Assembly (NCBI GenBank): GCA_037719665.1 | Contig: JBBJLU010000024.1 | Coordinates: forward strand, 12,770 to 36,769 | Direction of reading: 5' to 3' | From: Ferruginibacter sp. | GTDB lineage: Bacteria > Bacteroidota > Bacteroidia > Chitinophagales > Chitinophagaceae | DNA length: 24,000 nt | Shown: positions 795-18,644 of the stretch, one piece after another | Layout: the number at the start of each line of letters is the position of its first letter | Numbering within the stretch: position 1 is the first letter of the stretch | Notes under the pieces: generated by a model | Seen by the model: only the letters and a program-made list of their open reading frames with translations | Database searches by the model: none | What the model was told of the DNA's origin: nothing | Translations under genes and position numbers: made by a program

Positions 795-1037
795 ATATGG
801 ATTCAAAGGGATTTATTGATGACTGCCTGAGCCCCATTTCACCGACCTTCCTATACCGCTGTAGATAACGAGATTTCCGTCATTTTGGATGATCAATGAC
901 CGGGAATTTGCAAACCCTGTACCGACAATCAGGACTATGTGTTAAGATTCACTTTCTCATGGACGATACCTGGTGAACAGCGGGGTTTTTCCCGGTGCGG
1001 CATTTTATTTTGGCATAAAATTTACAAATCGATAATC

Positions 1038-3911
1038 ATGGGCTTAACTAAATACCGCGATAAACGTTCTTTTACAGAAACCCCTGAACCTAAGGGTGGC
1101 AAGTCGGAGGACAGCGACTTAAAGTTTGTGATCCAAAAGCATGCAGCATCACACCTGCATTATGATTTTCGCCTGGAGATGCGCGGCGTGTTGAAAAGCT
1201 GGGCCGTTCCGAAAGGGCCCTCCACTGACCCTTCGGTAAAAAGACTCGCGATGATGGTAGAAGATCATCCTTATGACTATAGGAATTTTGAAGGGATCAT
1301 TCCCAAAGGCCAATACGGCGGTGGTACAGTGATCGTATGGGATGAAGGCACTTACAGTACAACTGATGAGGAACCCGCCGGTGATAAGAAATCCGCAGAG
1401 AAAATATTAATGGCGGCATTGGAGAAGGGCAAGATCAAAATCATAATGAAAGGCAGGAAATTAAAAGGTGAATATGCACTCGTGAGATCCCACGGAAGAG
1501 AAGAAAATGCATGGTTACTGATGAAGGTTAAAGATAAATATGCGTCCGTGACTGATATTACAAAAAAAGAAAAGTCAGTATTGTCGGGGAAGACACTAAA
1601 GCAGGTTGCGGCCACGTCAGAAAATATTTACGGACAGGCTAAAGAGGAACTAAAAGAAAAAAAAAGGATAACAAGTTCAAAAAAGAGTGCGGGAGAAGTA
1701 CAACCTGACGCAACGTCTGCAAATGTTGACTTGCCAACTTTACTTAAAAAAGGAATAAAAAAGGCGCAGCCCGCTGATCTTGCACCAATGCTTGCCACAC
1801 TTACGGATAAGCCCTTTGATGCGCCCGGTTGGCTCTATGAAATTAAATGGGACGGATACCGTGCATTGGCATACACAAATAAAAAGACTGTAGAACTTGC
1901 ATCCCGAAATAATAAATCTTTTAATGAAAAATTTTACCCGATCGTAACAGCATTAAGATCCTTCGGGATGAACGCCGTGTTGGACGGGGAGGTAATTGTA
2001 GCGGATGAAAAAGGTATGGCCAATTTCGGAGACCTGCAAAACTGGCGTAGCGAAGCAGACGGTAACCTCCTATTTTATGTTTTTGATATACTGTGGTACG
2101 AAGGAAAGGATCTTACACATTTACCCCTCACGGAGAGACGGGCCATACTAAAAGCTATACTTCCTGAATCAGATAATATTTTGCTGAGCAATGATTTTGA
2201 AACATCGGGTCTGGATTTCTTTGACGCAGCCGAAAAAATGGGATTGGAGGGTATCATGGCTAAGAAAGCAGACTCTGCTTATAACAGCGGCGGAAGAACT
2301 ACTGATTGGCTAAAAGTAAAAACAGCTATACGCCATGAAGTAGTGATCGGGGGCTATACTAAAAACGAAGGCACGGCAAAACCTTTCAGTTCCCTGCTTG
2401 TGGGTGTGTATGAAAAAGGAAAACTGGTTTACAGCGGGAAGATCGGTACCGGTTTTAACGATAAGACACAAAAGGAAATGATGGCGTTGTTTAAACCGCA
2501 TATCATCAGCGAATCGCCGTTCAGTACGGTGCCCGATATCAACCAGCCTTCGCGATTCCGACCTGTCCCGCCAAAGGCTACGGCTACATGGCTTAAGCCG
2601 GTGCTGGTTTGCGAAGTAGCGTACCGTGAATTAACCACAGACGGTATCATGCGGCATCCATCTTTTCAGGGGATGCGTATTGATAAGGCTGCGAAGGCTG
2701 TGGGGAGGGATAAGGTGGTGAAGCAAGGGGAGCTAAAAGATGAAAAAGGGAAAAAAGAGAAAAAAGTGGGGCTAAGAGAACAAAGAGAGAAAGAGGTAAA
2801 AGGGGGGCTAAAAGTAAAACAAGGAGAACAAGGTATAAAAAAAGGGCTAAGAGAACAAAGAGGGAAAGAGAACAAAGAGGGGCTAAAAGATAAACAAGGA
2901 GAAAAAGGGGAAAAAGTGAAACAAGATGGAAAAGTAAAAAACGCAGATGTGGCGAAATATATAAAAGCACCGAAAGCGGCGGAAAGGAAGACGTTGTTGA
3001 ATCCTACTGATGAAACGCAGGTGAGGAAGATCAACGGTAAGGAGATAAAGTTTTCCAACCTCAACAAGATCTACTGGCCGAAAGAGAATATTACCAAGCG
3101 GGAATTCCTGAATTATTATTACCGCGTGGCACCGTATATTTTGCCCTGGCTGAAGGATCGGCCTCAATCTATGAACCGTTTTCCTAATGGCATTACCGGT
3201 AAAAGCTTTTATCAAAAAGATGTAACCGGAAAAGTTCCCGATTGGGTAGAAACTTTCCCATACGTGAGTGAGGGTATCGATAAAAAGTTCATGCTGTGTA
3301 ATGATGAGGCTGCATTGCTATATATGGCGTCACTGGGATGTATAGAAATGAATCCCTGGAGCAGCACGTATAAAAAACCCGACAACCCGGATTGGTGTGT
3401 GATCGATCTTGATCCGGATAAAAACCATTTCGATAAGGTGATTGAAACGGCATTGGTCACAAAAGAAATATTAGATGCTGCCGGTGCAGACAGTTATTGT
3501 AAAACTTCCGGCTCTACGGGACTGCACATTTACATTCCATTGGGAAAAAAGTATGATTATGAAGCATCTAAAGAATTCGCACGCCTGATCGCTCACCTTG
3601 TGAATGAGCGGTTGCCGAAGTTTACAAGCATAGAAAGAATGACAGCTAAGCGCCGCGGCAAATTATACATCGATTTCCTGCAAAACAGGCCACAGGCCAC
3701 GCTGGCAGCCGCTTACTCAGTAAGGCCGAAACCCGGTGCCACGGTATCAATGCCCCTGCATTGGGAAGAGGTGAAAAAGGGATTGAAGATGACGGACTTT
3801 ACGATCCATAACGCTCCCGCGCGGCTGGCAGAAACAGGAGATATTTTTAAACCCGTTTTGGGTAAAGGGATCAATATGGAAAAGGTATTGAAAAAAATAA
3901 GTGAGGAATAG
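1038..3911 (+). CDS. ligD: ATP-dependent DNA ligase LigD, three-domain form (3'-phosphoesterase, ligase, primase-polymerase)
   Basis: The N-terminus MGLTKYRDKRSFTETPEP...FVIQKHAASHLHYDFRLE is the LigD phosphoesterase signature. The central part has PMLATL...YEIKWDGYR (KxDG adenylation motif). The C-terminal part (KFSNLNKIYWP...MNRFPNGI...KTSGSTGLHIYIPL...IDFLQN) is the LigD polymerase domain. I prefer the ATG at 1038 over the track start at 939, because the 33 upstream codons do not resemble LigD. Confidence 0.9.
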   Translation: MGLTKYRDKRSFTETPEPKGGKSEDSDLKFVIQKHAASHLHYDFRLEMRGVLKSWAVPKGPSTDPSVKRLAMMVEDHPYDYRNFEGIIPKGQYGGGTVIVWDEGTYSTTDEEPAGDKKSAEKILMAALEKGKIKIIMKGRKLKGEYALVRSHGREENAWLLMKVKDKYASVTDITKKEKSVLSGKTLKQVAATSENIYGQAKEELKEKKRITSSKKSAGEVQPDATSANVDLPTLLKKGIKKAQPADLAPMLATLTDKPFDAPGWLYEIKWDGYRALAYTNKKTVELASRNNKSFNEKFYPIVTALRSFGMNAVLDGEVIVADEKGMANFGDLQNWRSEADGNLLFYVFDILWYEGKDLTHLPLTERRAILKAILPESDNILLSNDFETSGLDFFDAAEKMGLEGIMAKKADSAYNSGGRTTDWLKVKTAIRHEVVIGGYTKNEGTAKPFSSLLVGVYEKGKLVYSGKIGTGFNDKTQKEMMALFKPHIISESPFSTVPDINQPSRFRPVPPKATATWLKPVLVCEVAYRELTTDGIMRHPSFQGMRIDKAAKAVGRDKVVKQGELKDEKGKKEKKVGLREQREKEVKGGLKVKQGEQGIKKGLREQRGKENKEGLKDKQGEKGEKVKQDGKVKNADVAKYIKAPKAAERKTLLNPTDETQVRKINGKEIKFSNLNKIYWPKENITKREFLNYYYRVAPYILPWLKDRPQSMNRFPNGITGKSFYQKDVTGKVPDWVETFPYVSEGIDKKFMLCNDEAALLYMASLGCIEMNPWSSTYKKPDNPDWCVIDLDPDKNHFDKVIETALVTKEILDAAGADSYCKTSGSTGLHIYIPLGKKYDYEASKEFARLIAHLVNERLPKFTSIERMTAKRRGKLYIDFLQNRPQATLAAAYSVRPKPGATVSMPLHWEEVKKGLKMTDFTIHNAPARLAETGDIFKPVLGKGINMEKVLKKISEE
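2768..2917 (+). repeat. Two tandem 75-bp (25-aa) units inside the LigD ligase-polymerase linker
   Basis: GCTAAGAGAACAAAGAG starts at 2771 and 2846. GCTAAAAG starts at 2807 and 2882. The period is exactly 75 nt. The peptides are GLREQREKEVKGGLKVKQGEQGIKK and GLREQRGKENKEGLKDKQGEKGEKV. Confidence 0.85.
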
Positions 3912-5417: not shown

Positions 5418-5515
5418 ACATCCCAAAGCCCGGATCGTTCATAATTAATAAATAATAATTAATAACTAATGATGCTTCAGGTCGCGTCTCTTTGAAGGGC
5501 CCCGGCAGTTCGACA

Positions 5516-5548
5516 ATACGAAGCCCCGAAATTTTCGGGGCTTCGTAT
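5516..5548. terminator. Perfect 16-bp-stem palindromic hairpin, candidate terminator for the 4755..5417 gene
   Basis: ATACGAAGCCCCGAAA-T-TTTCGGGGCTTCGTAT. It lies ~100 nt after the stop codon and only a weak T-rich tail (TGTAATTATT) follows. Confidence 0.5.
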
Positions 5549-5754
5549 TGTAATTATTAATTACTCTTTATTAATTTTTAAATAATAACTAATAATGTTT
5601 CTGGATAACAGTGATCACAGCCCGCATCTCTGTGAGGTGCCTCCTGCAGATCGATAAAATTACGAAGTCCCGAAAATTTACGGGTTCACATTATTACTTA
5701 TTAATTTTTACCTATTAATTATTAAGTTCCTTCCCGCATTTCCCTCAAAGCAAA

Positions 5755-6856: not shown

Positions 6857-7774
6857 CTATTTCCCTGCAGGCCTTCTTGCACCGCCGCCACCGCCCGGTC
6901 CGCCGGGTGTTCTGCGACGTTGTGCACCGCCACCGCCGGGTCCGCCGGGACCACGTCCTGCACCACCGGGTCCGCCGCTGCGCCTTCTGTCGTCACCGCC
7001 TTCCTGCTTATTTTCAAAACGGGCCGCTCTTGCTTCTGCACTTTCTTCGCTCTCTTCGCTTCCTTCATCTTCCTTACTGTTCTGACGGTCTGCAAGACCT
7101 TCAGCGATAGCTGCAGTGATATAGTTAACGATAATCGCAATTGATTTGGTAGCATCGTCGTTGGACGGGATCGCAAAATCAACTTTGTTCGGATCGGAAT
7201 TGGTATCCACCATTCCGAAGGTGCTGATGTTAAGACGCTTTGCTTCTGCCAAAGCGATATGTTCGTGGCCGATATCCACCATGAACAACGCTGCAGGTAC
7301 ACGGCTGATCTGTGCGATACCACCAAGTACTTTCTCCATTTTATCACGCTCACGTGTAAGGGTCAGTCTTTCTTTTTTGTTCAGGTTCTCCGCGCTTCCG
7401 TCGCCCAGCATCTTATCAATGCTCTGCATTTTCTTTACGCTCTTACGAACCGTGTTGAAGTTGGTGAGCATTCCCCCCAACCAACGTTCTGTAACGAACG
7501 GCATGTTTACGCGCTTTGCTGATTCCTGTACGATCTCTTTCGCCTGCTTTTTTGTAGCCACGAACATGATCTTTTTTCCGCTGCGTGCGATCGCTTTCAT
7601 AGCTGCTGCAGCTTCCTGCAATCCTTCCACTGTCCTGTTAAGGTCAATGATATGGATCCCTTTCTTTTCCGCAAAGATGTAAGGAAGCATTTTCGGGTTC
7701 CACTTTTTCTTCAGGTGACCGAAGTGAACACCTGCTTCCAGGAGCTGCTGTTGTAAGGAAGTATTATTTTCCAT
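6857..7774 (-). CDS. rpsB: 30S ribosomal protein S2 with a ~70-aa acidic then Gly/Pro/Arg-rich C-terminal extension
   Basis: LLEAGVHFGHLKKKWNPKMLPYIF...GIHIIDL...ILFVATKKQAKE-like core. The tail is ...EDEGSEESEESAEARAARFENKQEGGDDRRRSGGPGGAGRGPGGPGGGGAQRRRTPGGPGGGGGARRPAGK. Confidence 0.95.
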   Translation of the reverse strand: MENNTSLQQQLLEAGVHFGHLKKKWNPKMLPYIFAEKKGIHIIDLNRTVEGLQEAAAAMKAIARSGKKIMFVATKKQAKEIVQESAKRVNMPFVTERWLGGMLTNFNTVRKSVKKMQSIDKMLGDGSAENLNKKERLTLTRERDKMEKVLGGIAQISRVPAALFMVDIGHEHIALAEAKRLNISTFGMVDTNSDPNKVDFAIPSNDDATKSIAIIVNYITAAIAEGLADRQNSKEDEGSEESEESAEARAARFENKQEGGDDRRRSGGPGGAGRGPGGPGGGGAQRRRTPGGPGGGGGARRPAGK

Positions 7775-8384: not shown

Positions 8385-8843
8385 TTATTTGTTTGTGCGG
8401 TTAAAGTTTAGGTCCTGTGGTTTTTGCGCGCCATGCGGATGATCAGCCCCTACATATACAAATAGTTTTTTGTACATCTGTCGGCCAAGGCGATTCTTAG
8501 GAAGCATGCCTTTTACAGCTCTTTCTACGATCACTTCGGGACGACGTTTTTGCAGATCTTTTGCGATCTCACCTTTTTGGCCACCGGGGTAACCGCTATA
8601 GGTCAGGTACTCTTTCTCATCCATTTTATTGCCGGTTAAAACTACTTTTTCGCAGTTTGTAACGATAATATAATCTCCGCAGTCTACGTGCGGGGTGTAA
8701 TAGGCTTTGTTCTTACCGCGAAGGATCGCAGCGATCTTAGCACACATACGGCCAACGGTTTGATTAGTACCGTCCACAACGTACCAGTTGTGCGTTACGG
8801 TAGCCTCGTTCGCATGTTTAGTAGTGAAATGTAATTTGCTCAT
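8385..8843 (-). CDS. rplM: 50S ribosomal protein L13
   Basis: WYVVDGTNQTVGRMCAKIAAILRGKNKAYYTPHVDCGDYIIV. I prefer the ATG at 8843 (MSKLHFTTK...) over the GTG at 8864 used by the ORF track. Confidence 0.92.
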   Translation of the reverse strand: MSKLHFTTKHANEATVTHNWYVVDGTNQTVGRMCAKIAAILRGKNKAYYTPHVDCGDYIIVTNCEKVVLTGNKMDEKEYLTYSGYPGGQKGEIAKDLQKRRPEVIVERAVKGMLPKNRLGRQMYKKLFVYVGADHPHGAQKPQDLNFNRTNK

Positions 8844-9194
8844 TGTATTTTGTTTAAGTGACACCGCAGCTATCCCCGCGGTTTTTTAATGAGGTGCAAA
8901 AGTAGAGGGATATTTCATTTATTCAAAGGAAAAGGAGGGGTTTTTTTGAAGGCACATCCACAACTTATTGATATTCAATAAAAAAATAAGCGACTGTTTT
9001 TATTCTATAGTCTGAGGAAACAATTTTAATACGGGAACCCGTTTTAAATCTGAATGACGGTCACGCACTCTGCCTCATATGCCATTTATCAACAGAAAAC
9101 GATTTCCCTACTACTCAAAAAGATAACAATAACATCATATTTGGGAAACATAGCGGCAAGATACTTGTTCTAATATTAGGAAATAAACCATTTT

Positions 9195-9572: not shown

Positions 9573-11013
9573 TTATGGTGTCCGATATATTTTGATCACC
9601 CCGTCGTTCTCGCTGCTCACGATCACCAGGCTCTTGCCAACCGGGCTTTGCGCCGCAGGAACAAACGTGATCCCTTCGGGTGCATCGCCGGTAAGAAGGG
9701 TTTTGATAAATACCGGTGCCGTTGGATCTGTTACATCATATAAAGCCAACATGTCTGCACGCTCCATCCCTACGAATGCTACTGTTTTCTTACCCATGAT
9801 CCCGATCGTTACGCCTTCGGGTTCCACTCCTTTATCATCGCTGCGCAGGTCATCATATTTACCGGCCGCTATTGCTTTAGATTCCAATTCATTTTTACTG
9901 TCCCAAACCCTGTCGCCGTTCAGGCCGTTCCAAACACTGAAAGAACGTGCGCCGAAAGAAAATAATTCATCGAAATCATTATCTGCACCGAAATCACCCA
10001 TGGTCCGGGTAATATTAAGACGGCCGAGTTTAGGTTCTGTTTTTAAAATTGCGAAATCAGGGAATACCATTGCATCAAGTGTAATGTCTTTGATTCTTTT
10101 GTTCTCCGCAAAGCCGGGGTAATCGCGCATGGTACATGCCTTTTACGTTCCATTGTCCCGGTAAGATCACCAGGTCCTTATCGCTCGGGTCGATGCTGTT
10201 CTCTGCAAGGCTGTAGTTCTTGAATCCTAACGGAAAAATGGCTGTAACAGATTTTGAGGGGAGATCAATTTTAGCGAACGCATTGTTTTCCTGCAACGTC
10301 ACCCAAGCGGTGCGACTGTCTGAAGAAATCGTTACATATTCCGGCTCTATATCCTGTGCGAAAGTGGCACCCGGGCCAAAAATGCGCAGTCCGCGGCTTT
10401 GCAGCGCAGCAAATTGCGAAGCAAAAGAAGCAAAGTCTACTGTTACTACTGCATAATCATCCGCCACGGTAATGATGGATACCGTACCTACCGGGTCAAT
10501 GGTATAGGCATCATTCGGTTCGCCTTCATTAGCAGAAACAATATATTTTCCGTCTGCTGAAAAGGTAACCATATCGGGCAAAGGACCTACCGTAACCTGT
10601 TTCAGCAGGGAGTAATCAGATGTTTTGAAAATGACGATCTTCCCCTGATCTGTTTTGGTTGTACCTTCCAGTGCTGCGGCCAGTTTGCCGTCAAATACCG
10701 ATACGCTGTTGATAAAACTGCCGTAGGGTAAAATATTAATATTTCCGATCAATGCGGGGGCGGAAGGGTTGGCCAGGTCTACAATATCTATTCGGCTGCT
10801 TCCGCCGGCATTGGTCACTACAAATAATCTTTTGGTGGAAGGGTCATAGGCAGTGATCTCCGCTGCACCCACACCGCTAAGGGTTATGCTGCCTACTTCC
10901 GCAAAGCCCGCTATATCTTCCTGTGCCGGTTCGGGTATTACCGGGGTGGTGTCGGTTTTTTTACAGGAGAAGATAGCTATACTGCAAAACAGTATGGAGT
11001 AAATAAATTTCAT
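9573..11013 (-). pseudogene. Beta-propeller lipoprotein (choice-of-anchor-I-like family) disrupted by a frameshift or internal deletion near 10075-10130
   Basis: The ORFs 10075..11040 and 9573..10130 are co-linear parts of one protein. The first part has a lipoprotein signal (MKFIYSILFCSIAIFSC), EITAYDPSTKRLFVVTN, LPDMVTFSADGKYIVSANEGEPND and IEPEYVTISSDSRTAWVTLQENNA. The second part has RDYPGFAENKRI...VEPEGVTIG...KSLVIVSSENDG. The frames overlap by 56 nt. Confidence 0.6.
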
Positions 11014-11199
11014 GAGTTGTTTTATGTTTTGAGGTCGCAACTTAGCCTTCCGATATTACGGTTATGTGAAGCAACCGTTATGGAATTATGAACTGCGGTT
11101 GTACGTATTTTATATGACCGGTTCCCGAAATTCAAATATTAAATTGTAATATTATATTGCCGCTTCCCGAAAGAGTGCGACAGTTACCAAACTATTCCC

Positions 11200-13883: not shown

Positions 13884-14774
13884 TTGACCATCATTCCTTT
13901 CTCAAAGTTTTTTACTGCATTTGCCCTTGGCGCTTTTGCGCTCTGCATAAACAGTTGCGCTTTTAAAAGCATCAACCGCTCTAAAAATATTACCTACCTC
14001 CCTGCTGATGCTTCGGGTACCAAACCGGCACAACGATTAAATATTTTCGCACCGAAGAAAAAAAATGAACTGAAACCGGTGTTGGTATTTATGCACGGCG
14101 GCAGCTGGAACTCCGGAAAAAAAGGACTGTATAGCTTTTTCGGGACACGTTTTGCGAGGAAAGATGTGCTTACCGTTATTGCAGATTATCCGAAAAGCCC
14201 CGGGGCAAATTTTGATGAGATGGCATTGGACGTTGCCCTGGCGGTAAAATGGGTAAAAGAAAATATTGCTTCTTATGGCGGAGACCCAAATAATATTTTT
14301 CTTTCGGGTCATTCCGCGGGCGGCCACCTCGCTGCATTGGTCGGTATCAAAAAAGATTATTTCCGCAGGGTGGGAATGGCTAATCCTCTGAAAGGTATCA
14401 TCCTGATAGATGCTGCGGGCCTGGATATGTATGGCTATTTGTCGGGAGAAGGATATGAAGAAGGCAATACTTATTTGAAAACGTTTACCTCGGATCCCAA
14501 ACAATGGAAAGAAGCCTCGCCATGGTATTTTCTACACGACTCCATGCCCCCGATGCTTATCTACCGTGGCGGCAGAACATACCCGTCCATTGAAGAAGGA
14601 AATGAAAAGTTTGTCGCGGCAATGAAACCATTTGTTCCTACACCCACATATCAAATTTTAGAAGGTAAAAAGCATGTGCCGATGATATTGCAGTTTTTCA
14701 ATACTGCTAACCCGCGGTATAAAGAGATGATCGGGTTTATGAAAGAGAATAAGCCCGCCACAGAACATTTTTAA
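13884..14774 (+). CDS. Lipoprotein alpha/beta hydrolase of the esterase/lipase type (HGG ... GxSxG)
   Basis: Signal with lipobox (AFALCINSC), VFMHGGSWNSG oxyanion motif, and GHSAGGH nucleophile elbow. The track start is TTG and there is no in-frame ATG nearby, so the start is uncertain. The last 270 nt are repeated at 16721-16990. Confidence 0.8.
   Translation: MTIIPFSKFFTAFALGAFALCINSCAFKSINRSKNITYLPADASGTKPAQRLNIFAPKKKNELKPVLVFMHGGSWNSGKKGLYSFFGTRFARKDVLTVIADYPKSPGANFDEMALDVALAVKWVKENIASYGGDPNNIFLSGHSAGGHLAALVGIKKDYFRRVGMANPLKGIILIDAAGLDMYGYLSGEGYEEGNTYLKTFTSDPKQWKEASPWYFLHDSMPPMLIYRGGRTYPSIEEGNEKFVAAMKPFVPTPTYQILEGKKHVPMILQFFNTANPRYKEMIGFMKENKPATEHF
14478..14747 (+). repeat. Direct repeat copy A (functional 3' end of the esterase gene)
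   Basis: Aligns without gaps to 16721-16990. My hand count is about 27 mismatches in 270 nt. The encoded 90 aa differ at 4 positions (W/L, E/D, T/R, M/I). Confidence 0.9.
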
Positions 14775-14814
14775 AACCATTTACTCAATTCCCGGGTCTT
14801 AAAAATAGATGTGT

Positions 14815-14933
14815 GCCGAGGCGTCGTCTTGGACCCGCCGACAACAGTATTTTATGGAAGAATTTAAACAACTGTAATTTTTTTGACATTGATATATTTA
14901 TCGGGTCGGCGGGTCGCAGCCAAGGCCTCGGCT
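14815..14933. repeat. 119-bp imperfect inverted repeat (bulged long hairpin) just downstream of the esterase stop
   Basis: The left arm is GCCGAGGC-GTCGT-CTTGG-ACCCGCCGAC (14815-14842). The right arm is GTCGGCGGGT-CGCAG-CCAAG-GCCTCGGC (14906-14933). The paired blocks are 8, 5 and 10 bp, with a 5-nt bulge on each arm and a 63-nt AT-rich loop. Confidence 0.75.
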
Positions 14934-14978
14934 CTTAAGCGTGCAAGTTTGATCGGCCAACGGGGGCAGAAAAGTTTA
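14872..14978 (+). repeat. Internal copy (L) of the island right-end sequence
   Basis: CTGTAATTTT...GGGTCGGCGGGTC...CTCGGC...GA-C-G-CCAAC-GGGGCAGAAAAGTTTA aligns with 16623-16730. Copy R lacks the 11 nt GCAGCCAAGGC. Confidence 0.6.
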
Positions 14979-15013
14979 TTTATATTAGTGTAAACACCAT
15001 ATCTTCTTAGAAA

Positions 15014-16159
15014 CTAAATTTTATATTTTGCCAATACTTTTTCAAACACATTTGATTTAATAAAGTTTTGTTTCTTTTTATTTACCCGGATAATATTTAA
15101 AAATCCCAGTTCCACCAGCATTTTTAAATCCGCTCTTGCCGTAAAATTCGAAATATTAAACCTGCTTTCAATTTCTTTAGTATTGAACACTCTTTCCGAA
15201 TCGTCGTTTACAATTTTTAATATCTGCGCCATTCTATCATTCACCCCGGGAATACGCATAAATTTTGCAGCCTGAAACACTTCTTTCTGCTTTTGGTTTA
15301 TATAATCTTTTAAAGCATCAAAAGCTTTTTCCATTGTTTTTACATGGTAAGTTATAAAGTAACTCAGATCATTTTCATCTGTTTCTGTATATAAATAAGC
15401 CTTTTCATATTGTGTTTTTGTATCTTTTATTATTTTAGAAATAGAGAGATATTCTGTAAGCCAATACCCCTTCTTCAGCATATACCAATAAAATAAAGCC
15501 CGGGCCGTTCTGCCATTTCCATCGGTAAACGGATGTATCCAACCTATCATAAAATGAACAATACATCCTTTTATTATGGGATGTATAAATGTTTCGGATT
15601 CACTATTGCAAAACACACACAGATCATTTATAAGTAGTTCCAATTCCGTTGTTACCGGCGGTGTATGCACTATCTCACTTGTGGAATGGTCCACAACATA
15701 AACTTCATCATTATCTCTTAATCTTCCTTCATCCTCATTATCGTCTAAAGTTTTATTGGAAATTAATTTATGAACATTTAAAATATTTTTAAGCGTGATC
15801 TCATCATTCCTGTGCTGAATAATATGCTTCATGGTTATGAAATTATTCATAATCATTTGTTCAGATTTGCTTTTAGGCTTCTGATCCTTTTGTATCATCT
15901 CTTTCGCCTTTTTTCTTGTAGTGTTTGCCCCTTCCATCTGACTACTCGAAATTGCTTCTTCTATAATAGAACTTATTATGAATTTTGTTTTATCAGTTTC
16001 AGCAATTCCGATGTTGCTGCTTAAATTCCCCCCGATATGAAGATCAAAAAGATGTAATGCCCTTTGAAGATAATCGGTGACGGTATACTGAAAATTATAA
16101 TTGCCAAAGCGAATAGAATTGGACTTTAAATATCGCTCAAACTTTATTGCTTTCCACAA
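15014..16159 (-). CDS. Fic-domain protein (AMPylase/adenylyltransferase family) with an internal inhibitory motif and a C-terminal winged-helix-like domain; the N-terminus is probably disrupted
   Basis: The Fic active-site motif HPFTDGNGRTAR is present. An N-terminal SxxxEG-type inhibitory helix motif (SSSQMEGAN) is present. The C-terminal NTKEIESRFNISNFTARADLKMLVELGFL resembles a wHTH. The track start is a TTG. The same frame stays open and protein-like upstream to 16285 with no ATG, and an ATG at 16311 lies in another frame. Confidence 0.8.
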   Translation of the reverse strand: MWKAIKFERYLKSNSIRFGNYNFQYTVTDYLQRALHLFDLHIGGNLSSNIGIAETDKTKFIISSIIEEAISSSQMEGANTTRKKAKEMIQKDQKPKSKSEQMIMNNFITMKHIIQHRNDEITLKNILNVHKLISNKTLDDNEDEGRLRDNDEVYVVDHSTSEIVHTPPVTTELELLINDLCVFCNSESETFIHPIIKGCIVHFMIGWIHPFTDGNGRTARALFYWYMLKKGYWLTEYLSISKIIKDTKTQYEKAYLYTETDENDLSYFITYHVKTMEKAFDALKDYINQKQKEVFQAAKFMRIPGVNDRMAQILKIVNDDSERVFNTKEIESRFNISNFTARADLKMLVELGFLNIIRVNKKKQNFIKSNVFEKVLAKYKI

Positions 16160-16622
16160 CTCTACGGGTTCACCATCTTTAGCTTTATATTTGACCTTAT
16201 CCCAATATAAATAGTCATCCTGAATTTTTTTTAAAGTCCATCGTACCTCAATGATACCATCAATGGTATACTTTCGTGGTTTCTTTCAAATGTTGGTGCT
16301 TTTTCTATCATATCAGGGGAGAAACAAAAATAAACAAAATTGCGAGTTTATTGATAAATCTCGTAATTTTAATAAATATCAAGATTTAAATGATACAATT
16401 TTATACTTTGCAAATCATAATATATAGCATAATACTATTATATAATACTACTAAGACGGGTATAATATATAAAATGGAATAAATTGCGAGAATAATGAAT
16501 AATCAAGCGATTTCAATAATAGTGTTTAAAATTTCATTACGAATCACTTTTTTGACAGAAGGTTGATCTTAAAAGAGTAACAAAAAAACTCACTTCAAAA
16601 ACCTATACTCATAAACCAGCGG

Positions 16623-16730
16623 CTGTAATTTTACAGTGAGTGTTTTATATCCCTTAAAATTAATGGGTCGGCGGGTCCTCGGCAATTTAGTGGGGAATTA
16701 TGACTGACCAACAAGGGCAGAAAAACGTTT
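16623..16730 (+). repeat. Island right-end sequence (copy R) abutting the displaced esterase 3' fragment
   Basis: See copy L. It ends in GGGCAGAAAAACGTTTACC, where homology to the esterase gene (GAAAACGTTTACC at 14477) begins. Confidence 0.6.
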
Positions 16731-16990
16731 ACCTCCGATCCCAAACAATGGAAGGAAGCTTCGCCGTTGTATTTTCTGCATGATTCCATGCCCCCGATGC
16801 TCATTTACCGCGGCGGCAGAACCTACCCTTCCATTGAAGATGGAAATGAGAAGTTTGTCGCGGCAATGAAACCATTCGTACCTACACCCCGATATCAAAT
16901 TTTAGAAGGGAAGAAACACGTACCGATGATATTGCAGTTTTTCAATACTGCTAATCCGCGGTATAAAGAAATAATCGGGTTTATGAAAGA
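16721..16990 (+). repeat. Direct repeat copy B
   Basis: Gap-free alignment to 14478-14747 at roughly 90% identity. Confidence 0.9.
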
Positions 16991-17006
16991 AAAACGCGGG
17001 ACATGA
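16725..17006 (+). pseudogene. Displaced 3' fragment of the esterase gene (probably the original chromosomal end)
   Basis: The in-frame translation is TFTSDPKQWKEASPLYFLHDSMPPMLIYRGGRTYPSIEDGNEKF...MKEKRGT. A stop at 16701-16703 precedes it and no 5' part of the gene is present. Its TGA (17004-17006) directly abuts the stop of the convergent amidohydrolase gene (17007-17009). Confidence 0.8.
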
Positions 17007-18644
17007 TCATTTCTTAAAAACCTTTTCCCCGTTTACCCAAGTTCCTAAAATTTTAGTGCTTAAAATTTCATTGGGGTTACAATGCATCAGATCCTTATCC
17101 AGCATAATAAAATCTGCTGCCTTACCTCTTTCCAGGCTACCTTTTTCTTTTTCTTCAAATGCGGCCTTTGCCGCCCAGATGGTCATACCCCAAATGGCTT
17201 CTTTGCGTGTAAGCGCATTCTCAATTTGGAAGCCCGCAGCCGGAAAGCCTTTCGCATCTTTACGAACCACTGCGGCGTAAAATGTTTTTATGGGTTCAAT
17301 ATATTCCACCGGAAAATCTGTACCTAAAGGCATCCAACCGTTTGTTTGTAATAATTGTTTGTATGCATATGCAGTCTGTATACGTTGCGGGCCCACACGA
17401 TCGGCAGCCCAATACATATCACTCGTAGCATGCGTGGGTTGTACGGAAGGAATAATGCTGTAATCGGTGAAATAATGAAAATCTGCAGGGTCCATTACCT
17501 GAGCATGTTCTATGCGCCACCTTTTATCATTTGTTCCCTTCAAAACATCAGCATAAATTTTTAGGATCGTTCGGGCGCCACTATCGCCAATGGCATGGGT
17601 ACACATTTGCAGGGCAGAACGGGAAAGTTTTTCTGCAGCAGTTCTGAAATGTTGTTCATCACTTCCTAAAAAACCTTTCCACCCCGGCCTATCAGTATAA
17701 TCCTGCAGCAAACTTGCACCCCGTGAACCAAGCGCACCATCCGCATAAAATTTAAAACCGCCTACATGAAAACGTTCTGTTTTCAGGGGGCCGCTGTTTA
17801 TCCATCTTTCATAATAAGTACTGTCATCAGAAAGCAATGCAAAGATCTTCATCTTAAGCCCACCGTTTTTTTGTGCACTTTTTACAAGCTCTACCGTATG
17901 CTCGCTGATGCCGCAATCCTGCACACCGGTGAGTCCCGCAGCAAAGCAATAATCCTGCGCGGCGAGAAAATATTTATGTGCGAGACTGTCATTTAAAAGG
18001 GGTATTTTTTTTTCAGCGAAATGCATGGCATTATCTATGAGGATACCTGTGAGTTTACCGTTCTTTATTTCCACTTCGCCTCCCGGTATTTTTGTGGTGT
18101 CTGTTATCCCCGCCATATCGAGTGCCTTCTGATTCAGGAGTGCGGCATGACCATCTATTCGTTTGAGAAACATTGGCCGATCGGGAAAAAGGCTGTCAAA
18201 GATCTCTTTGTTTGGAAATTCTCTTACCGCCCAATCATTCTGGTCCCATCCCCGCCCATAGATCCAATGCATCGGTGCCGTCTTACTGTAAGCCGTTATT
18301 TTATTGATAACTTCTTCAAAAGAAGTTGTTCCTACGAGATTACTCTTCCACATATCTGTTGCATACCCTGTAAAATGGCAATGCGCATCTATAAAACCGG
18401 GAAAGATCGTATTGCCTTTCGCATCAATATTCTCCGTAGCGGTATACATTTTTTGTATGGAATCATTCGTACCGGTAGCTATTATTTTACCATCCAAAAT
18501 AGCCATAGACTGCGCTTCAGAAAAATGCTCATCTGCTGTATAGATCTTTGCATGGTGAATGATTAGAGAAACCTGTTGCCTGTTATTGCAGGAAGAAAAA
18601 GCAATTAAAAGAAGGATACTGTATACTAAGTTTGAGGATTTCAT
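17007..18644 (-). CDS. Amidohydrolase-3 (YtcJ-like) metal-dependent hydrolase, lipoprotein
   Basis: Signal with lipobox (LLLIAFSSC). FPGFIDAHCHF metal-binding motif. GFKFYADGALGSRGA, THAIGD and SVQPTHATSD segments are typical of the family. Confidence 0.85.
   Translation of the reverse strand: MKSSNLVYSILLLIAFSSCNNRQQVSLIIHHAKIYTADEHFSEAQSMAILDGKIIATGTNDSIQKMYTATENIDAKGNTIFPGFIDAHCHFTGYATDMWKSNLVGTTSFEEVINKITAYSKTAPMHWIYGRGWDQNDWAVREFPNKEIFDSLFPDRPMFLKRIDGHAALLNQKALDMAGITDTTKIPGGEVEIKNGKLTGILIDNAMHFAEKKIPLLNDSLAHKYFLAAQDYCFAAGLTGVQDCGISEHTVELVKSAQKNGGLKMKIFALLSDDSTYYERWINSGPLKTERFHVGGFKFYADGALGSRGASLLQDYTDRPGWKGFLGSDEQHFRTAAEKLSRSALQMCTHAIGDSGARTILKIYADVLKGTNDKRWRIEHAQVMDPADFHYFTDYSIIPSVQPTHATSDMYWAADRVGPQRIQTAYAYKQLLQTNGWMPLGTDFPVEYIEPIKTFYAAVVRKDAKGFPAAGFQIENALTRKEAIWGMTIWAAKAAFEEKEKGSLERGKAADFIMLDKDLMHCNPNEILSTKILGTWVNGEKVFKK

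Follow-up and report, generated by a model that had tools for sequence, protein, structure and literature searches.

Two diverged copies of an esterase 3' end bracket the worn-down remnant of a possibly imported defence island in a Ferruginibacter sp. contig

In contig JBBJLU010000024.1 of a Ferruginibacter sp. (Chitinophagaceae; GCA_037719665.1), the 3' end of an esterase gene is present twice, and the two copies enclose a short AT-rich segment that carries a frameshifted Fic gene. All coordinates given here refer to the 24,000-nt stretch of this contig that was analysed, called the window. The locus is a variable spot between two convergent core genes, which encode the esterase and an amidohydrolase. 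We put the chances at about even that horizontal transfer brought a defence island here, of which the segment 14478-16721 is the worn-down remainder, and that it arrived with a foreign esterase end through recombination that was either homology-anchored or illegitimate.

The direct repeat consists of copy A (14478-14749) and copy B (16722-16993), 272 nt each, which align without gaps at an offset of 2244, are 90% identical and form the sole long repeat in the window. A preliminary description of this DNA had reported gapless repeats at 14478-14747 and 16721-16990; the repeat is real, but copy B had been placed one base too low. Upstream of both copies the identity drops at once to background (5-10 of 30 positions per block), and past 14749 and 16993 the tails diverge, copy A continuing as NKPATEHF and copy B as KRGT before their stop codons. 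As had been claimed, copy A completes the esterase gene: it corresponds to codons 199-289 and lies in the same frame as the 5' part of an open reading frame (ORF) on the forward strand (13884-14774) that encodes a 296-aa alpha/beta hydrolase of the BD-FAE/Abhydrolase_3 type. The last 98 codons of this ORF are copy A plus the A-specific C-terminal tail with its stop codon (14750-14774, forward strand), and this tail resembles neither the B tail nor the 3' end of the amidohydrolase gene to a significant degree. Copy B with its own tail and stop (16722-17006, forward strand) is an orphan esterase 3' end without a 5' part. It starts at esterase codon 199 and is a startless, promoterless fragment attached to the ancestral neighbour, the convergent gene for a 545-aa Amidohydro_3 amidohydrolase (17007-18644, reverse strand), whose stop codon abuts that of copy B (17004-17006).

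The two copies differ at 28 nt, one more than the approximate count made earlier, and 25 of these differences fall at third codon positions. Differences affect 27 of the 90 codons, 23 of them synonymously and 4 with replacement of the amino acid (W/L, E/D, T/R and M/I), so that the earlier figure of four changed residues in 90 and the mostly synonymous nature of the differences both hold. By the Nei-Gojobori method, the synonymous divergence (dS) is 0.62 and the nonsynonymous divergence (dN) 0.021, a dN/dS ratio of 0.034, which indicates, in agreement with what had been proposed, that both copies diverged under purifying selection. This ratio excludes drift of a copy made in place: free drift of copy B after an in-place duplication would leave four or fewer amino-acid changes with P = 0.0003. 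Copy B fits at most about 8 unconstrained substitutions, a pattern that marks it as a recently orphaned end, apparently free of constraint for at most about 3% divergence. The further step taken in the preliminary description, from constraint to divergence in different lineages, is not compelling by itself, since two functional paralogues in one genome, followed by a recent deletion, would give the same pattern.

Comparison with relatives bears on which of the two ends is the resident one. The order esterase, convergent amidohydrolase, ligA and DUF2461 is kept in more distant relatives, and L005-L007, three such loci, have a single esterase at this place. In L006 (GCA_038225275.1) the stop codon of an intact esterase lies 2 nt from that of the amidohydrolase, which is the "empty" form of the locus. 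Because L006 has this junction with an intact esterase, the view that the junction between copy B and the amidohydrolase represents the original arrangement is supported by comparison of the loci. The empty site that had been expected in relatives was thus found as an arrangement, but a near-identical empty site was not found in the genome scan, whose relatives were at most 72% identical. In L005 (10748-11206) and L007 (10766-11212) a gene for a 148-aa protein, frameshifted in L005, lies between the esterase and the amidohydrolase. Judged from these loci, the junction is variably occupied, since it is empty in L006, holds the 148-aa gene in L005 and L007 and the Fic remnant in the window, and is associated with an island of at least 8.5 kb on a further contig, L008, described below. 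To the left of the esterase, the Hydrolase_4, EthD and DUF418 genes of the window have no counterparts in L005-L007; therefore the left side is uninformative on where the imported DNA would start.

The DNA between the copies has a G+C content of 0.329 (14750-16721), compared to 0.430 in both copies and both flanks. In agreement with the AT-richness noted earlier, a windowed profile shows a break in composition, with values falling to 0.24-0.35 over 15050-16700. Positions 15008-16531 match L008, an unrelated metagenomic contig, at 88%. This match, which is to an island, and the AT-richness support the view that the intervening DNA is foreign. The preliminary description held that it carries only a Fic gene; this has to be corrected, since that gene contains a frameshift and shares the interval with a gene relic and repeated motifs. 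The relic (16592-16649, 58 nt, reverse strand) comprises the last 19 or so codons of a gene for a 796-aa NPPY methyltransferase-like protein; it is 86% identical to L008 5220-5163 and reads KLQPLVYEYRFLK in the window and KLQPMVYEYGFLK in L008, each up to a stop codon. Six-frame fragments of the non-coding parts gave nothing but this relic. The island of the window thus retains only the frameshifted Fic gene, the 58-nt methyltransferase-like stub and copies of a motif of about 80 nt, and it was clearly hit by several deletions. As had been stated, there is no recombinase in the 24-kb window; Pfam scans of all large ORFs and ARAGORN detected no recombinase, transposase or tRNA there. Nor did the search for a phage or plasmid origin give relatives of the Fic or the 796-aa protein in IMG/VR, and collections of plasmids and phages matched the Fic core only.

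L008 (Logan, SRR13094682) carries the same island lineage in undecayed form, at least 8.5 kb long and beside an esterase gene. The Fic gene of the window (15014-16311) and that of L008 (7261-8559) differ by a dS of 0.30. In the orientation of the window, L008 starts with an esterase gene (est2) that lacks an ATG, GTG or TTG start, followed by a 33-codon fragment of the 3' end of an amidohydrolase gene (E = 6e-6), a second esterase upstream region (80 nt) with a full esterase gene (est1) and, after 37 bp, the gene for the SoFic-like Fic AMPylase. Genes for an HNH_5 protein, a 147-aa protein and the 796-aa NPPY methyltransferase-like protein come next, and then a toxin-antitoxin pair (76-aa protein and PIN), one copy of the motif, a gene for a 587-aa ORC/CDC6-like ATPase and the end of the contig. 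Pfam scans found no recombinase among the genes of these 8.5 kb, and the L008 island likewise lacks a transposase or tRNA. By gene content and similarity, the island of the window is thus the skeleton of an L008-type island.

The tandem esterases of L008 (8597-10560) are only about 63% identical to each other, and est1 is far closer to the esterases of other lineages than to est2; the second esterase is xenologous and not a duplicate made in place. What is duplicated in L008 is the whole esterase gene with 80 nt of upstream DNA and the 33-codon amidohydrolase fragment, with no break at esterase codon 199. The event would thus be of the same kind as in the window, a foreign esterase coming to lie next to Fic and the resident one being displaced, with other boundaries. 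A relic of the amidohydrolase 3' end was also considered downstream of copy A, as in L008; it looked plausible by eye but was rejected, being not significant by local alignment against shuffled sequences, nor with an nhmmer profile. Between copy A (14478-14749) and L008 est1 (8612-8875), synonymous sites are saturated. The same island lineage therefore adjoins esterase 3' ends in two backgrounds that have diverged widely. As the Fic genes differ by a dS of only 0.30 whereas the adjoining esterase ends are saturated, no esterase-derived attachment segment travels with the cargo.

The 587-aa AAA ATPase of L008 (212-1975) has relatives with 55-89% identity in Bacteroidota, Bacillota and Shewanella. 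Among the contigs from Bacteroidota that were examined, its gene is preceded by a gene for a 228-aa protein and in some also by one for a 250-aa protein, a candidate horizontally mobile defence operon that has no PADLOC match. The far end of the L008-type island was sought through three close homologues of this ATPase (L019-L023), which lie at unrelated loci.

These data bear on a reading in which both esterase ends arose in one genome. Tandem esterase paralogues would have remained functional for long around the island, until a recent deletion by microhomology, spanning from the motif's 3' end up to codon 199 in the second copy, left copy B. It agrees with this that copies A and B are each other's closest relatives (96% identical amino acids, against at most 82% to anything else), that copy B has been free of constraint only briefly, that the island of the window lost several segments by deletion and that L008 has tandem esterases at the locus. 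However, the second copy in L008 is xenologous, L005-L007 have but one esterase there, and more steps are needed than with one import, so that we consider paralogy improbable.

An assembly artefact, in which variants of the esterase end from two strains or species were stitched into one contig, has in its favour that two apparent frameshifts in the window (in the Fic gene and in a choice-of-anchor I gene) mean that the assembly may be error-prone, and that proteins identical to the Fic protein or the amidohydrolase are not on record, so there is no independent copy of the contig. A chimeric join would, however, switch alleles within shared sequence and not insert 2.2 kb of unrelated DNA between two copies. 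Furthermore, the junction between the right copy of the motif and copy B shares only GAAAA, and L008, an independent data set, shows an esterase duplication around the same island. We regard an artefact as very improbable.

The motif that marks this junction is about 80 nt long and present in two direct copies that bracket the Fic cassette of the window. The left copy (14891-14977, forward strand) is G+C-rich and ends in GGGGCAGAAAA, and the right copy (16653-16729, forward strand) has the 3' end GGGCAGAAAA, which is joined directly to esterase codon 199 of copy B. A third, partial copy is inverted and forms the left arm of an imperfect hairpin (14815-14932), whose 28-nt arms (14815-14842 and 14905-14932) are 82% complementary and enclose a 62-nt loop. 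Single copies are found in L008 (1972-2051) and in a further locus, L015 (487-564). The consensus 3' end is GGGCAGAA(A/T)A, and GGGCAGAA forms the breakpoint at three loci in three data sets, joined at each to a different, unrelated sequence: in the window it meets esterase codon 199, in L015 codon 3 of the 796-aa gene, and in L008 the stop codon of the 587-aa gene. At the junction with copy B, CAGAAAA is followed by ACGTTT where the esterase reads TTGAAAA CGTTT, so that GAAAA is shared one base out of register; the junction in L015 shares the microhomology AAAG. If the cassette were excised, the predicted circle junction would read GGGCAGAAAA followed directly by ACGTTTACCTCGGATCC.

Several identities were considered for this motif and rejected. 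It is no known RNA, tRNA fragment or terminator by Rfam, ARAGORN and a terminator scan, and shows no covariation; compensatory pairs are lacking from its consensus fold, and of the four copies folded singly, three do not outperform shuffled sequences. No copy is accompanied by a target-site duplication, which speaks against a miniature inverted-repeat transposable element, an insertion-sequence end or an attC-like site. Nor does it seem to be a common repeat, being absent from IMG/VR and from the surroundings of the homologues of the 587-aa ATPase, with one true match in the JGI metagenomes. Prone to hairpins and rich in A, its 3' end may be a place where illegitimate joins and deletions are frequent, or it may be a real recombination site. 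One form of the latter, in which a recombinase encoded by the host would use the motif in trans to dock and shuffle defence cassettes in Chitinophagaceae, with esterase codon 199 as a secondary target, fits the locus because of the sharp 3' end with three partners, the motif pair around Fic and the presence of the island lineage beside esterase ends in two divergent hosts; we nevertheless look on it as a long shot. The motif is the sole part of the locus that might be new.

A more familiar possibility is an integrase-type element such as e14 or phage 21 in E. coli icd, the class to which the preliminary description had assigned the locus. The attP of such an element would have carried a replacement esterase 3' end, and its integration at codon 198/199 would have created attL (the esterase with copy A) and attR (the right motif copy with copy B); the recombinase would later have been deleted, or would act in trans, and the G+C-rich motif copies around copy A would be arm-type binding sites. 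The topology equals that of icd and icdC around e14, which we checked as a comparator. In both cases foreign DNA lies between direct repeats of a gene 3' end, the gene is made complete by the proximal copy, the distal one is an orphan (the icdC pseudogene) and the differences are mostly synonymous (12 nt over a 165-nt repeat and 2 of 54 residues for icd/icdC, compared to 28 over 272 nt and 4 of 90 residues here). The triple occurrence of GTCGGCGGGTC flanking copy A in circular permutation, the recurrent sharp junction at the motif 3' end, and the fact that two widely diverged backgrounds have the island lineage (Fic dS of 0.30) beside an esterase 3' end are also in keeping with integration.

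By contrast with the window, e14 encodes intE and xisE between its repeats and has a fixed attachment site; here no recombinase is present in the 24 kb or in the 8.5 kb of the L008 island, and the 2.2 kb hold decayed defence genes. In L008 no motif separates the esterase from Fic, the related island has other duplication boundaries, and the GTCGGCGGGTC core is not conserved in the motif copy. The saturation between copy A and est1, as opposed to the cargo, further means that a replacement end was not inherited with the cargo, and the motif is rare. The differing boundaries and the lack of co-inherited esterase ends speak against e14-like integration through a fixed attP. The locus thus shares with this class the flanking 3'-end repeats and fails it in having no recombinase, no fixed boundaries and no co-inherited replacement end; the assignment to a small integrase-type element with its own replacement end is not supported, and we hold an integrase origin, including a recombinase since deleted or acting in trans and the motif copies as arm-type sites, to be plausible but less likely than the reading taken up next. 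As to the two fates offered for the segment in the preliminary description, a decayed remnant agrees with the data and cis-mobilisation found no support.

We return to the reading of an imported defence island in decay. The course that follows is inferred as to which way the import went, what type of crossover took place and when the deletions occurred. A defence island resident at the hot spot in a related lineage would have entered together with part of that lineage's diverged esterase. The esterase homology could have anchored its entry, whether in a Campbell-type single crossover that inserted a circularised fragment or in homology-facilitated illegitimate recombination. The second junction would have arisen where the motif ends in its A-rich 3' part, unless a full second esterase was cut down to copy B afterwards by a microhomology deletion. 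Since the C-terminal third of the hydrolase fold is encoded by the duplicated part, selection would have kept one esterase intact, and the resident end would have been left behind as the orphan copy B. Most island genes would have been deleted after entry, or would already have been gone before it. An integrase encoded by the element would not have been involved, and the remnant would now be immobile. Nothing points to present mobility, although RecA recombination between copies A and B could still remove the remnant and restore a 292-aa esterase.

Several points weigh against this course of events. Neither the donor nor a closely related empty site was found in the databases, where the closest esterase among 5.8 billion proteins is 78% identical, and polarisation with outgroups placed copies A and B at equal distance from 30 database homologues; with no donor and equidistant copies, the term imported rests on the topology and on the precedent of L008. 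The far end of the L008 island lies off the contig, and a recombinase could be encoded there. That the island lineage adjoins an esterase 3' end in two backgrounds whose divergence is too great for exchange by RecA (about 73% nucleotide identity) hints at a site preference. The GAAAA microhomology is short, A-rich and, as noted, out of register. Finally, homology-facilitated illegitimate recombination as described usually deletes DNA of the recipient and does not duplicate it.

Known systems offer two further comparisons. Defence islands cluster at hot spots between conserved core genes, as seen in pan-genome surveys of E. coli and Pseudomonas, and the arrival route of islands without mobility genes is seldom visible. 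The locus resembles these hot spots in its fixed core pair of esterase and amidohydrolase with variable content across relatives, and in a cargo of SoFic-like, methyltransferase-like, HNH, PIN toxin-antitoxin and ORC/CDC6-like ATPase genes. To our knowledge, hot-spot surveys rarely show a direct physical footprint of entry; it differs from them in that its duplicated, synonymously diverged flank (dS of 0.62) supplies such a footprint, and L008 would be a second, independent one with other boundaries. The two loci together would amount to a natural experiment, if a small one, on how recombination drives the turnover of islands in Chitinophagaceae and show the speed with which an island may be whittled down to gene stubs.

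The second comparison is with the displaced orphan 3' ends of Rhs, contact-dependent inhibition (CDI) and type VI secretion system (T6SS) effector-immunity loci, for which either homologous recombination or its homology-facilitated illegitimate form is held responsible (PMC5361080 and references therein). Homology-facilitated illegitimate recombination was suggested for displaced modules of T6SS and for the orphan 3' ends of Rhs (PMC5361080). There, as proposed here, an incoming module with a homologous anchor displaces the resident 3' part, whose orphan persists downstream, with no dedicated recombinase, at a recurrent hot spot and with mosaic ancestry (PMC5361080). The difference is that in those systems the variable 3' end, the toxin tip, is itself the cargo, whereas the duplicated end of the window is a housekeeping-type esterase domain with a near-identical protein product and the cargo is a separate defence island. 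Taken together, these comparisons suggest that the locus is an ordinary example of a known footprint and not a new type of mobile element.

The Fic gene (15014-16311, reverse strand) is SoFic-like and, from alignment with L008 and another locus, L009, starts at the ATG at 16311-16309. Compared to both, it has lost 1 nt near 16238, which creates a stop at 16233-16231 (codon 27), and the remaining ORF (15014-16159) could give 381 aa from an internal TTG. The frameshift may be real or an assembly indel error, and the gene as it reads in the window is probably dead. Its protein has the HPFTDGNGRTAR core, which satisfies the pattern tested, HxFx(D/E)GNGRxxR, together with an SSQMEG inhibitory motif and a C-terminal DeoR-like winged helix-turn-helix (wHTH) domain. 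It matches Pfam Fic (E = 1e-17), PADLOC SoFic (PDLC03963; E = 9e-47) and SoFic chains in the PDB (E = 1e-14). SoFic is a Fic-domain anti-phage defence protein (PMC12249575). The window protein shares with it the Fic core motif, an N-terminal inhibitory motif and the C-terminal wHTH domain, and differs in that its copy is frameshifted and scores 70.6 bits against the NCBIfam SoFic equivalog NF046030, far under the 550-bit cut-off; in addition, L008 has no small antitoxin-like gene downstream of Fic, where just 37 bp follow. By similarity, the protein belongs to a distinct 432-aa Bacteroidota family, which is unusually conserved, with 72-90% identity across Chitinophagia, Flavobacteriia, Cytophagia and Bacteroidia.

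Upstream of the gene (16327-16519), a unit bearing the palindrome TTGCGAG...CTCG[C/T]AA occurs twice, at 16327-16375 and at 16471-16519. Three loci, the window, L008 (about 7040-7250) and L009 (about 9950-10000), conserve the palindrome TTGCGAGAT...ATCTCGCAA at 30-60 nt upstream of the start codon of Fic, with a second copy 144 nt farther upstream in the window and in L008. Its position and conservation make it a likely operator or promoter, possibly an operator for the wHTH domain of the Fic protein itself.

At loci L009-L014, members of the 432-aa Fic family occur as single-gene inserts in unrelated contexts, and homology stops 3-6 nt past the stop codon. The neighbours of the Fic gene in L014 are HepT/MNT and Gp49/HTH toxin-antitoxin pairs together with a group II intron reverse transcriptase.

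Elsewhere in the window, the choice-of-anchor I domain gene is split into overlapping ORFs (9573-10130 and 10075-11040, reverse strand) by an apparent frameshift near 10100. Two apparent frameshifts in 24 kb, counting that of Fic, could be assembly indel errors or real pseudogenes. The LigD gene (939-3911), with phosphoesterase, ligase and primase-polymerase parts, contains a purine-rich tandem repeat (2725-2949) with periods of 36, 39 and 75 that encodes a Lys/Glu/Gly-rich linker. An AT-rich intergenic region (5438-5727) holds three units at a spacing of 123 nt, with hairpins of the type CCCCGAAATTTTCGGGG.

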